Shown: positions 8,521 to 24,531 of the stretch, in pieces
Layout: the number at the start of each line of letters is the position of its first letter
Numbering within the stretch: position 1 is the first letter of the stretch
NCBI GenBank assembly: GCA_964016885.1
Contig: OZ024742.1
Coordinates: 312,046,001 to 312,110,000 of the forward strand
Length of the DNA: 64,000 nt
Direction of reading: 5' to 3'
Source: Eledone cirrhosa
Lineage: Eukaryota
Made by a program: the position numbers and the translations under genes
The notes under the pieces: model-generated
Told to the model about the DNA's origin: nothing
Seen by the model: the letters and a program-made list of their open reading frames with translations, nothing else
The model's database searches: none

Positions 8521-9580
8521 CCTCGACGGTGATCAGGTGTGGTCGCCGTTTGCTAGACACGTCTTTCCCCAGCTTGTCTCCTTGACGGAGCTTCAGTCCT
8601 GGGTCAAGCGAAGACCGAGAGGGAGCGCTTGGAGACTGGAATGTCTTCAGGCGCTCACAGCCCTCGACCAATCGGGCAATGTGATCGGTGGAAACTCCAC
8701 CTTGGCGTTCTATAGAGGATTAGTGGAGGGGAAGAGCGACGACGTACTTGGAGAAACTCTAGGCGTCGACGAAAATCAACTAGAAAATCTCTTTGGAAGG
8801 ACTTTCGGGCCGGGGTCTATGGACAACTTCCAGAAATCCCTGGCCTGGCAGTGCTACTGAGGAGCTTTGTCAGTTCGGGATAAACTCTACAGGCATGGAG
8901 GTGCCGTCAGCCGGGCATGTCCGAGATGCGCGCAGGGCGACGAAACCGTCCTGCACGCACTCGTCCAGTGTCCGACCATTGCTGACTTGTGGGTTTATGT
9001 CGAACACCTGCTGTCACGTGTAGGACGGATCCAGCTATCAGCTGAGTCCATCGTGAGAATTGCCCCGCCCTCTTCCTTTAGCCGGGAAGGGCAGGCAGTT
9101 TTTATCTTTCTGGTGGCCATGGCGAAATAGATAGTATGGTGGACACGTTTGAAAGGGCTGAAGACGAGCACTTACCTCTTCGGTGATGCCCTGATTAACT
9201 TTTTCAAATTTCATTTGAAAAGGAAAATCAGGGTAGGGAGGGAAGTGCTCTCTTCCCAGCATTTTGTTGAAAGATGGGTGAGAGAAGCAAGTATGGCCCG
9301 AGTGAATGGGCCTACTCTGAGTATGTGTCTGTAAATTAAAGGTGGAAAACTGGGAGAGGGCACTTGCCCTGGTGGTCAGGGTCACTGTGGTCTTTTAATG
9401 GGCTTTCTCCACAAATGTCCCTCGGAAGTCTCCCTCCTATTGGGGAATCCTTCTTTGTTATTTTATTACATCCTCTGTTTTTTTTTACACGCGGAAATGC
9501 CCCTTTGTACCGTCCTGTATTGTCCTGTACTGTCCTTAATGTCTACTTTATGTAAACCCTTGTGGTTAATAAAGAAAACA
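8521..9580 (+). mobile_element. 5'-truncated L1/Tx1-clade LINE (ORF2 C-terminus plus 3' UTR), subfamily 2
   Basis: ORFs 8537-9334 are collinear with the end of 18147-20303 (CPRCAQGDETVLHALVQC); two in-frame stops; ends CCCTTGTGGTTAATAAAGAAAAC then (ATT)n. Confidence 0.93.
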
Positions 9581-9639
9581 TTATTATTATTATTATTATT
9601 ATTATTATTATTATTATTATTATTATTAATATTATTATT

Positions 9640-20619: not shown

Positions 20620-23600
20620 CTTTTTTTTTTTTTTTTTTTTTTTTTTTTTTTCCGAATTCAATGATGTTCCAGAACAATATAAAAGAGATAATTGGCAATT
20701 TAGGTTCTGGAACAAAAAAGATAATTGGCAATAAGGGCAGGGGCCCCAGGTTATCACAGCTTGGGCCCGCTCGTCATCGTGCCATTGTAATAGAGCCAAA
20801 CAAGGCATTTAGTCTTGGCTGCTGGAACGTACGGACGCTGCTTGACAGGGATTCCTTGGGGCGTCCTGAACGAAGGACCGCTCTTGTTGCAAAGGAGCTT
20901 CGACGTTACGATCTTGACATCGTGGCTTTATCTGAGACGAGGCTAGCTGGAGATGGTCATCTTACGGAATTTTGTGGACAATATACAATCTTCTGGAAAG
21001 GAAGAGATGAAGGAACCAGAAGAGAGGCTGGGGTAGGATTTGCTGTTAAGACTGTGGTTGTGAACAAATTAGAAGAATTCCCAGTAGGGATTAGTGAGCG
21101 TCTTATGTCCATGAGAGTTCCGCTGGACAAGGGAAGATATGCTACCCTGGTGAGTGTGTTGTGTATGCTCCAACTATGAGTTCTGTCGATAAGGAAAAGG
21201 TGTCCTTTTACCATGCCTTGAAAGGTGTTTTAAGAAATATCCCTCAGGCAGACAAAGTCATCGTGCTTGGTGACTTTAATGCTAGAGTGGGTAGGGATTT
21301 TAACACATGGAATGTAATCGGAAGGCATGGGTGGGAAAGTGTAACAGTAATGGTATGCTCCTGCTGCAGATGTGTGAGGAGCTGGATCTGTGTGTTACCA
21401 ACACCATGTTCCAACAAAAGAACAAATTCAAGACCACATGGATGCATCCTGCATCTAAGGAATGGCATCTTTTGGACTACGTCCTAGTCAGGATGCGTGA
21501 CAGACAGGATGTGCAGTGTGTTCGTGTTCTTCGTGGAGCTGAGTGCTGGACGGACCACCGCCTGGTACGCGCAAAAGTGAAACTAATCACTAAACGTAAA
21601 ATCCGGGCTCCTGGTGTTGCCCTGCCCAAAAGATTGAATGCTGCTCGTCTTAAGGATAAAAATGTGAAGAGGACATTGGAAGAAGAGATGCAGGCTGCAG
21701 ATCTTGGTGAGGATTGGCCGACCCTTAAAAAGTCGGTTTATGATGTAGGCAGGCGTGTTCTGGGATTGGCGCAGAAGAAACATCAGGACTGGTTTGATGA
21801 GAATGATGTACATATAGAAGACTTGTTGGCTGATAAGAGGCGTGCTCTGTCACGCTACTTGACGGCAAAACCACAGGAGAGGAATACGTTGCATGAGGAA
21901 CTCAGGGATGTAAAATCACGTGTTAGGCGGAGTCTTTCTCAGATGAAGGATCAGTGGTGGAGTGAGAAGGCTGGTGAGATACAAACTGCGTCTGATTCCA
22001 ATAACACAAAGCTGTTGTACAGTCTCTTACGTGAAGTTTATGGACCGTCTTCTTCTCTGGTGACACCGCTTCGCAACAAGGATACAAAGAACTTCTTCGC
22101 GACTCACAAGGAATTCTACGAAGGTGGCGAGAGCACTTTGATGATCTTTTGAATCAGCCGTCTGTCGTCAGCGAAGATTTCCTCAATCTCATTCCAGAAA
22201 GTCCTGTGAAAGTAGCTCTCGCAGAACCTCCGACGCTTGTGGAGGTTGCAGTGGCTATTTCGAAGCTGAACAGTGGAAGATCTCCAGGTATGGATGGCAT
22301 ACATGCTGAGCTCCTACAATATGGTGGTGAGAGACTCCTGCAACATCTTCACTCTTTGTTTGGCAGGATATGGGCTAATGAATCCGTACCTGAGGACTGG
22401 AGAGATGCAGTAATGGTGGTCTTGTACAAGGGAAAGGGTAACAGGAAGGATTGTGGGAACTACAGAGGTATATCATTGCTTTCTGTCGCAGGGAAAGTTT
22501 TATGTAGGGTGCTTCTGGACCGTCTACTGACACACATTGCAGATTGTGTTCTTCCTGAAAGTCAATTTGGTTTTCGTGCTGGACGCGGCACTACTGATAT
22601 GATCTTCTCAGCTAGACAGCTCCAGAAGAAGTGCATGGAACAAGGCTTGGATCTGTATCAGGTTTTTGTCGATCTGACAAAAGCTTTCGATACTGTTAAC
22701 AGAGATGCATTATGGAAGGTTCTCCAGAAACTTGGTTGCCCTGATAAGTTCCTTGCTTTAGTTAGGTCTTTCCATGATGACATGAAGGCTTGGGTTAATG
22801 TCGGGGGTAACATGTCGGAGCCTATCTCAGTAAAAAATGGAGTGAAACAGGGGGATATTCCAGCACCGACCCTGTTTGCCATATACTTTGCAATGGTTTT
22901 CTGTATTGCATTCAGGAATTGCGAGCATGGTGTTTACATCCGATATCGAACCTCAGGCAGCATATTTAACATCAGGCGCTTTGCTGCGAAGACAAAAGTA
23001 TTTACATCAATCATAAGAGACCTCTTGTATGCAGATGATTGCGATCTTGTAGCGCACACAGAGAGTGATATGCAGCACATTTTGAATACATTTTCTGACG
23101 CTTGCACTGCCCTAGGTCTGACTGTCAGTCTCAAGAAAACCGTCATGTACCAACCTGCCCCGGGTAAGCAGTACACTGAACCAAACATCTATGTGTATGG
23201 CAAACGACTTGGAGTGGTTGATCAGTTTGTCTACCTGGGAAGCACTGTCAATCGATACAGCAACCTTGACAGTGAAACCTCACTTAGGATTAGGAAAGCA
23301 AGTGATGCTTTCGGAAAGCTAGAAAGGCGACTCTGGGGTCGGCGAGATATATGCAGGAGGACAAAGGTAAAGGTGTACAGGGCATGTGTGCTCTCTTGTC
23401 TTCTTTATCCCTGCGAGACCTGGGTCACATATCGACACCACCTTAAGCAATTGGAGCGTTACCATCAGATGTGTCTCAGACGGATCCAGGGCGTTCACTG
23501 GAGGGACCACATCAGTGATGTCGAGATTTTGGAAAGCTCTATGTGTGACAGTATAGAAGCTCTTGTGCTTAAGCAACGACTCCGTTGGAGTGGTCACCTT

Positions 23601-24531
23601 GCCAGGATGAAGGATTCTAGAATACCAAAACAACTCTTTTATGGAGAGTTGGTTAAAGGAAAACGATCGCCACATAAACCAAAAAAGAGGTATAAGGATT
23701 CCTTGAAGGCCTCTCTGAAAGACGCTAACATCTCTGCTGATACATGGGAGAATATATTGCTGCTGATCGTAATAAATGGAGAAAGACTGTATATGAGGGA
23801 AAGGTTGCCTTTGAGGCATCTCGAATCGCATACGAGAAAGTAAAGCGGGATGTGAGGAAGGGCATTGCTGTTGCACTTCCAGACGGCGAGGGTCCTCCTA
23901 TGGTGCTGACATACAGCGTATGTGCGAGACTCTGCCTAAGCAAAGCTGGACTCGAAAGTCATCTTCGCAGTCATAAAGTAAAGTAAGACCAGTGGTTGAC
24001 TACCAGGCTGCTGTTGGAGATGCTACTCATTATGCTTGCCAAGCATGTGGTAGAGAATGTAAATCAGCAGGAGGGCTCAAGCGACATGCAAAAGTACACG
24101 AACTCCAGCCACAGCCGACTATTCCCAGTGAATGTTTTGGTTGCCGACTCTGTGCAAGACATTTTAGATCATTGGCTAGGCTAAAAAGCCACATTCGATC
24201 GCAGCGCTGTTAGTTGCTATCGTGTGTGTGTGTGTGTGTAGATATGCTTATGTGTGTGCGTGTGTGTGTATATATATATGTATATGTATATTATTATTGT
24301 TGTTGTCGTTATTATTATTGTTGTTATGATTATTATTATTATTATTGTTATTAATGTATGTGTGTGTGTGTGTATGTATATGAATGTATATGTATATATA
24401 TATATATATATATATATATTTCTTTCTTTTTTCTTTTTTATTTTTTTGTATTTTTATTTATTTATTATTATTTTTTTTTTTTCTTTCTCCTCATGCAATG
24501 GCCATACTCGATAACGAGGGGGCAGCCATCA
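20620..24531 (+). mobile_element. RTE LINE copy 2, body and microsatellite-rich 3' UTR
   Basis: Ends GCAATGGCCATACTCGATAACGAGGGGGCAGCCATCA then (TGTA)n; same terminus as 12568-12604. Confidence 0.93.
20661..24213 (+). pseudogene. RTE-clade single ORF: APE endonuclease, RT and three C2H2-type fingers; several frameshifts and one stop
   Basis: WNVRTL, ALSETR, YAPT, GDFNARVG, WTDH; YRGISLLS, DLTKAFDTV, KQG, LYADD, YLGS, LRWSGH; breaks near 21160, 21330, 22090 and 23755, stop at 23984. Confidence 0.95.

Follow-up and report, generated by a model that had tools for sequence, protein, structure and literature searches.

In this study, we report two arrangements of long interspersed nuclear elements (LINEs) in a stretch of 64,000 nucleotides (nt) from Eledone cirrhosa (contig OZ024742.1), hereafter called the window, of which positions 8,521-24,531 are shown here. 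At site A, and again at site B, the 3' end of a Tx1-like LINE is followed by an (ATT)n tract and then by the start of an RTE-type LINE. The original prediction held that this Tx1 lineage targets the leader of the RTE, or else (ATT)n in general. Our reading, held with high confidence, is that several Tx1-like subfamilies sit in (ATT)n microsatellites, likely by means of an endonuclease that cuts this repeat, and that the RTE leader is likely struck only for the ATT tract that it contains.

Targeting of (ATT)n microsatellites

The Tx1 3' ends, RTE starts and (ATT)n runs were counted throughout the 3.0-Gb genome, and all of these counts rest on exact motifs. The Tx1 3' motif gave 15,893 matches, 8,958 of which were followed by at least three ATT units. 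Junctions, defined as a Tx1 3' motif with an RTE start no more than 150 nt downstream, numbered 85, and the genome held 1,125 RTE starts and 122,745 maximal (ATT)≥5 runs (67,123 + 27,282 + 28,340). Tx1 ends abutting an RTE start made up 0.53% of all Tx1 ends (85/15,893) and 0.95% of the ATT-followed ends (85/8,958), while RTE leaders represented 0.92% of the runs (1,125/122,745). Comparison of the leader share among Tx1 ends with that among (ATT)n tracts, the check proposed with the prediction, gave no overall enrichment (observed/expected ratio 1.04, binomial p 0.74; 0.96-1.23 with other denominators). Targeting specific to the RTE leader was ruled out by these genome-wide counts, and that half of the prediction is abandoned.

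According to PMC4494074, target specificity is assigned when more than 20% of the flanks are the target. Under this rule the microsatellite qualifies as a target; the RTE leader does not, either for all Tx1 ends (85/15,893) or for the subfamily of the site B element, subfamily B (37/1,193). The position of the Tx1 insertions in the RTE host was not fixed either, varying along the lead-in and the tract. Neither more than 20% of copies in the host nor a fixed position, the two marks of the transposon-targeting Tx1 class (Tx1L, Tx1-Mar type), was found, and the data here give no evidence for one retrotransposon aimed at another. A Tx1 end nevertheless stands directly before the open reading frame (ORF) in about 8% of RTE leaders (85/1,125), where it would part the ORF from its promoter.

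The 5' side was analysed in a sample of 87 loci, which yielded 36 clean truncations (34 ran off the locus, 13 were without a close A- or B-type match and four were rearranged). ATT repeats were found at 29 of these 36 cleanly truncated 5' junctions, as against 2.6% of random 21-mers from the window. At the 3' side, 66 of 74 A- and B-type Tx1 copies carried at least two ATT units. Because ATT also flanks the truncated 5' ends, the microsatellite is the target and not a tail alone, and the possibility that ATT is a mere Tx1 tail was ruled out. Targeting of (ATT)n in general, the other half of the prediction, is borne out by both sides of the insertions. Target duplications were seen where the target was not pure repeat, at loci L095 (12 nt), L126 (~28 nt), L138 and L143.

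Some Tx1 copies lay in (TTC)n instead (L112, L361). In addition, about 9 of 30 unselected matches to the Tx1 motif belonged to a sister group flanked by TATC or TA. Members of this sister group, which has the same terminal motif, were located in (TATC)n/(TA)n at L037, L041, L045, L052, L054, L056 and L060, with the repeat at both junctions wherever these were visible.

In elements that lack long terminal repeats (non-LTR elements), the apurinic/apyrimidinic endonuclease (APE) determines where insertion takes place, and the RNA is copied by target-primed reverse transcription (PMC4494074). The Tx1 insertions described here have a fixed orientation, variable 5' truncation and a variable place within the tract. 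In the mechanism that we propose, the APE endonuclease is predicted to nick within the ATT repeat, and target-primed reverse transcription would begin at the conserved Tx1 3' end. Each insertion would leave ATT on both sides, so that the target would be renewed and elements could stack in it.

Organisation of sites A and B

All features of the two sites lie on the forward strand. The order Tx1 3' end, (ATT)n, T-run and CC.AATTCAATGATGTTCC (the RTE start) was seen, as predicted, at both sites (9557-9670 and 20556-20671). At site B, the left half of the RTE B leader (14820..15312) comprises an inverted piece (14820-14915), a T-run, the leader core and an ATT-rich end (15285-15312). Tx1 B (15313..20579) follows; its 5' end is short by ~640 nt, and it retains an ORF1 remnant and ORF2, the frames being in pieces. 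An (ATT)n tract and T-run (20580..20651) form the right half of the leader, and RTE B (20652..24530), a member of the young subfamily with a broken frame for APE and reverse transcriptase (RT), is followed by (ATGT)n. The left leader (~14874-15312) directly adjoins the start of Tx1 B at 15313, which agrees with the predicted nesting of Tx1 B in the leader tract. The prediction was right to place the leader to the left of Tx1 B, but had begun it at 15005; it extends further left, and copies match from ~14874. The nesting is real because empty leaders exist: a search for them, also suggested with the prediction, found leader, ATT tract, T-run and ORF start contiguous in the majority of 29 further leader loci. 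The event at site B would have been the insertion of a young, 5'-truncated Tx1 B into a young RTE.

At site A, a fragment of an unrelated repeat (8381..8487) ends abruptly at 8487 and is separated by ~33 nt of filler from Tx1 A (8521..9579). Tx1 A is of an A-type subfamily and consists of the last 272 ORF2 codons, with a stop and small indels, and the 3' untranslated region (UTR). The (ATT)20 tract and T-run that form the right half of the RTE A leader (9580..9652) are followed by RTE A (9653..12603), a copy of an older subfamily with several internal deletions, and then by (AT)n. Tx1 A is without its left end, no ATT tract is present at its left junction, and the left RTE leader is absent. 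For the repeat on its left flank 1,548 candidates were found and 40 scored; 11 of 11 other copies run past the point at which it breaks off, and a deletion is the simplest reading. The A-type Tx1 likely entered an RTE of older type; the left leader, the 5' part of the Tx1 and the right part of the flanking repeat were then likely lost by deletion. Alternatively, site A may be a Tx1-RTE composite that was truncated, or may derive from an RTE cut short at its tract, as occurs without a Tx1 at L313 and L323.

RTE A and RTE B were 92-93% identical over long blocks and 88-95% over others, close to the 90% first judged by eye. The two Tx1 copies shared 69.9% of amino acids over 272 residues (76.1% of nucleotides over 820 nt), in line with the two thirds predicted. 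Their 3' UTRs had been called unalignable apart from the last ~25 nt; this went too far, as a weak alignment was obtained without the last 30 nt (score 25 versus -46.5 ± 12.5 for shuffled sequences; best shuffle -7). A segmental duplication giving rise to A and B was rejected on the pair identities, the RTE tree and the diagnostic columns, and the prediction that a simple duplication does not explain the pair is upheld by the support of tree and diagnostic letters for independent insertion. In the tree, built from the first 815 nt of 98 of 107 copies (nine short matches were dropped) and with a bootstrap that had not fully settled, Tx1-bearing and empty RTE copies were mixed, with site A basal and site B in the youngest clade. 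At 21 of 23 non-gap diagnostic columns RTE A was old-type and RTE B young-type; the other two do not separate them.

One feature ties the two RTEs together. A frameshifting 5-bp tandem duplication (10154..10158 in RTE A and 21155..21159 in RTE B) had two matches genome-wide, both in the window. It lies within a 36-bp interval, and may have arisen when a short patch was converted ectopically across 11 kb, or else from an error in polishing. Its restriction to these two RTEs could also be taken to mean that the window pair is the product of a local duplication or of faulty assembly, as could the presence of two junctions within 11 kb, which is improbable by chance (~0.03 pairs expected for 85 uniformly placed sites, a lower bound since the elements cluster). 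We consider this extremely improbable, given that the diagnostic letters on both sides of the duplication are old-type in A and young-type in B, so that a converted or mis-polished patch spans at most 36 bp. Moreover, the Tx1 partners are of different subfamilies, each with 97-99% relatives elsewhere, and the genome holds 83 further junctions. Public reads matched to 8400-10400 were repeat-dominated, and no piece spanned the stretch.

Evidence against the (ATT)n reading and alternative explanations

Several findings weigh against the reading that (ATT)n is the target and the RTE leader an incidental carrier of it. Seven of the 36 5' junctions, site A included, are without ATT. Of the 85 junction loci, 60 were retrieved at 10 kb and 34 of these extended; the left leader was found in 39 of the 60, often behind stacks of Tx1 and R4-like LINE copies, while in seven the stacks ran past the fetched range and 14 were without a left leader in that range (eight in one segmental-duplication family; seven counted as independent). 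At L193, taken together with L248, the RTE is split, and its two parts flank a Tx1 and ~700 bp of other DNA in inverted orientation, an arrangement that resembles a twin-primed 5' inversion. Lastly, subfamily B is enriched at RTE junctions (37/1,193, 3.1%, 3.4x); of its 37 junctions, which were counted by eye among the 85, 35 fit the count pattern exactly. The enrichment persists after the eight-copy duplication family is collapsed and two junctions with an intervening SINE (short interspersed nuclear element) are dropped (28/1,184, 2.4%, 2.6x, p ~1e-5). Even relative to runs of at least eight units, among which the leader share is 1.8%, B remains 1.3-1.8x enriched; length explains part only.

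The leaderless junctions and L193 bear on a different explanation, in which the RTE machinery copies joint Tx1-RTE transcripts as single units, site A being one such composite with its 5' end truncated. In its favour are site A, the seven of 53 independent loci whose junction has no left leader, and the inversion at L193, which breaks at RTE positions 603/607 and has (TATG)n at both outer ends. Copying as a unit is nonetheless highly unlikely, since, with one segmental-duplication family set aside, near-identity in both partners was found for no pair (RTE distance of the closest pairs 1.4-3.6%) and the Tx1-bearing RTEs are scattered in the tree. The repeat that flanks site A on the left is itself interrupted, as a deletion would leave it, and the RTE is truncated at the tract in loci that have no Tx1 as well (L313, L323). 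The suggestion that Tx1 hitchhikes on the RTE likewise finds no support in the mixed tree or among the junction loci, where dispersed near-identical pairs in both partners were not seen. A positive correlation of Tx1 and RTE distances, considered as a sign of co-mobilisation, was rejected, as it follows from shared age.

Eight Tx1 B-RTE junctions on C19, C26 and C27 (L231-L238), of which seven break at the same points of the Tx1 and the RTE, appear to form a single segmental-duplication family.

With regard to subfamily B, the overall ratio of ~1 averages the enrichment of B at the RTE leader and a depletion of the A types (48/7,765, 0.62%, 0.67x). The tracts of the leaders exceed typical runs in length (median 8 versus 6 units), and this, together with possible activity of B during the spread of these RTEs, could account for much of the enrichment. 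A partial preference of B for the context of the RTE leader, for instance for the ATTAATAATTATTAATAGTGTAC lead-in or for an open chromatin state of RTE promoters, acting atop ATT targeting, appears unlikely. The 2.6-3.4x enrichment is what such a preference would produce, and some insertions lie within the lead-in itself; the latter (L126, L138, L143, L212), however, are A-type, and the A types are those depleted at the leader. Besides, 97% of B copies lie elsewhere, tract length and overlap in age explain part of the enrichment, and B is also commoner beside Tx1 5' ends than the listed ATT runs are (8/70 versus 2/50, not significant). A bolder scenario, which we regard as quite improbable, is that young B is shifting from pure (ATT)n toward the promoter-side tract of an active RTE (~3x), some leader-Tx1-RTE transcripts being copied by the RTE machinery. 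If true, one LINE would be seen here at an early stage of turning parasitic on another.

A tract shared with other elements

A second LINE, unrelated to Tx1, occupies the same tracts. It encodes a CCHC knuckle and a nuclease motif of the PD-(D/E)xK type, and we take it to be an R4/Dong-like LINE of the restriction-like endonuclease (RLE) type. Dong/R4-clade RLE elements include microsatellite-targeting ones. The 3' motif of this R4-like element was found 8,093 times, and left RTE leaders, searched with a slightly wider pattern, 1,089 times. The R4-like LINE lay directly after the RTE leader tract, in the opposite orientation to Tx1, at 38 places. Directly before 70 consecutive RTE starts, a Tx1 was found in six cases and the R4-like element in four to five. 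Like Tx1, it uses the same ATT/AAT tracts, that of the RTE leader included; unlike Tx1, it has an endonuclease of another class and the opposite orientation, and it served as a control.

The right flanks of 70 consecutive B copies were compared with the flanks of 50 ATT runs, which were chosen by their order in the list and all came from the first 3 Mb of one contig. The flank was a SINE in 23 versus 16 cases, an R4-like 3' end in 5 versus 4, a Tx1 5' end in 8 versus 2 and an RTE start in 2 versus 0, with 24 versus 22 unassigned. The right flanks of B resemble those of the listed ATT runs. One tract is common to the Tx1 subfamilies, the R4-like LINE and SINEs, and all of them stack there.

On the opposite strand of the same tracts, R4-like copies lie tail-to-tail with Tx1 in stacked arrays at L006, L189, L191, L204, L225 and L240. 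At L185, joined with L242 and with the leader motif at G000:C1:118967581, full-length Tx1 copies of subfamily A2 stand in tandem, with two or more complete and a third seen in part; this tandem appears to fill ~18 kb of one RTE leader tract.

Classification of the Tx1 and RTE elements

In Pfam searches, ORF2 of Tx1 B matched the APE (PF03372, 1e-15), RT (PF00078, 1e-28) and zf-RVT (PF13966, 1e-6) families, and its closest solved structure was LINE-1 ORF2p. The translated ORF1 remnant is without a Pfam match and contains a CCHC knuckle of the form C-x2-C-x4-H-x4-C. An ORF2 with APE, RT and a C-terminal zinc-binding domain, together with a separate CCHC ORF1, points to the Tx1 clade of the L1 group. 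The nearest Atlas cluster, 'Transposon TX1 149 kDa family' (score 0.97), is taken as a lead only. Full-length Tx1 copies of at least three subfamilies have their own 5' UTR, which begins straight after ATT. Because of these 5' UTRs, a promoter borrowed from the RTE, as the prediction had envisaged, is not needed.

For the RTE in the window, the RT was matched by Pfam, and the APE scored 24 bits, just below the 24.5 cut-off, in what is a broken copy. In 2 of 60 copies the frame runs on from the ATG for 1,169 codons or more without a stop, and the 3' end of the RTE is followed by (AT)n or (ATGT)n. Its Atlas neighbours bear RVT_1 and DUF6451. The host element has a single APE-RT frame, no ORF1 and a short repeat tail, as expected of the RTE type; by this architecture it is presumably an RTE. 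At L181, L184, L186, L222 and L226 the 5' end of the RTE reaches well past the leader core into unique sequence that is conserved, (AT)n(GT)n and DNA resembling SINEs; a long 5' flank may have been captured by the family.

Comparison with known systems

PMC4494074 describes Kibi in (TC)n and Koshi in (TTC)n of teleosts, as well as crocodilian Tx1 families in (TTCC)n/(TTTC)n. Like these, the elements studied here are Tx1-like APE-RT LINEs that occupy a microsatellite on a fixed strand; unlike them, the unit is ATT (TATC/TA in the sister group) and the genome is of an invertebrate type. Judging by flanks and 5' junctions, the Tx1 elements here are probably of the Kibi/Koshi-like microsatellite-targeting kind, with a presumed role for the endonuclease. 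ATT joins the microsatellite targets of Tx1-like LINEs, and the sister subfamilies with ATT and TATC targets form a natural pair for mapping endonuclease specificity. No description of an ATT-targeting Tx1 was found in the literature searched, Repbase, subscription journals and the supplementary target tables of PMC4494074 and PMC13282606 being outside the search.

PMC4494074 also covers Tx1 elements inside other transposons, namely Xenopus Tx1L in Tx1D, crocodilian Tx1-Mar and Tx1-9_AMi, and Tx1-8_Crp/Tx1-4_AMi in LTR elements, so that a Tx1 preferring another retrotransposon has already been published. Like the Tx1L and Tx1-Mar types, the copies described here lie within another transposon. 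Those types pass the >20% rule, whereas here 0.5-3% lie in the RTE leader and the position in the tract varies. In Octopus vulgaris, Dong-R4, L1-Tx1 and RTE are listed as recently active in PMC13282606.

Other features of the window

Directly after RTE B, a short element (24585-24990) has an RTE-like leader, 69% identical to 15059-15276, and a zinc-finger-like 3' part. It recurs in other loci and looks like a non-autonomous RTE derivative. Between the two RTEs, a 200-bp inverted repeat with 99% identity (13584-13782 and 14379-14579) surrounds a 600-bp core. Positions 1-2593 are occupied by a tandem array of ~113 copies of a 23-bp unit with 95% matches, and an RT fragment followed by a PHD finger was found on the reverse strand at 50181-51284.

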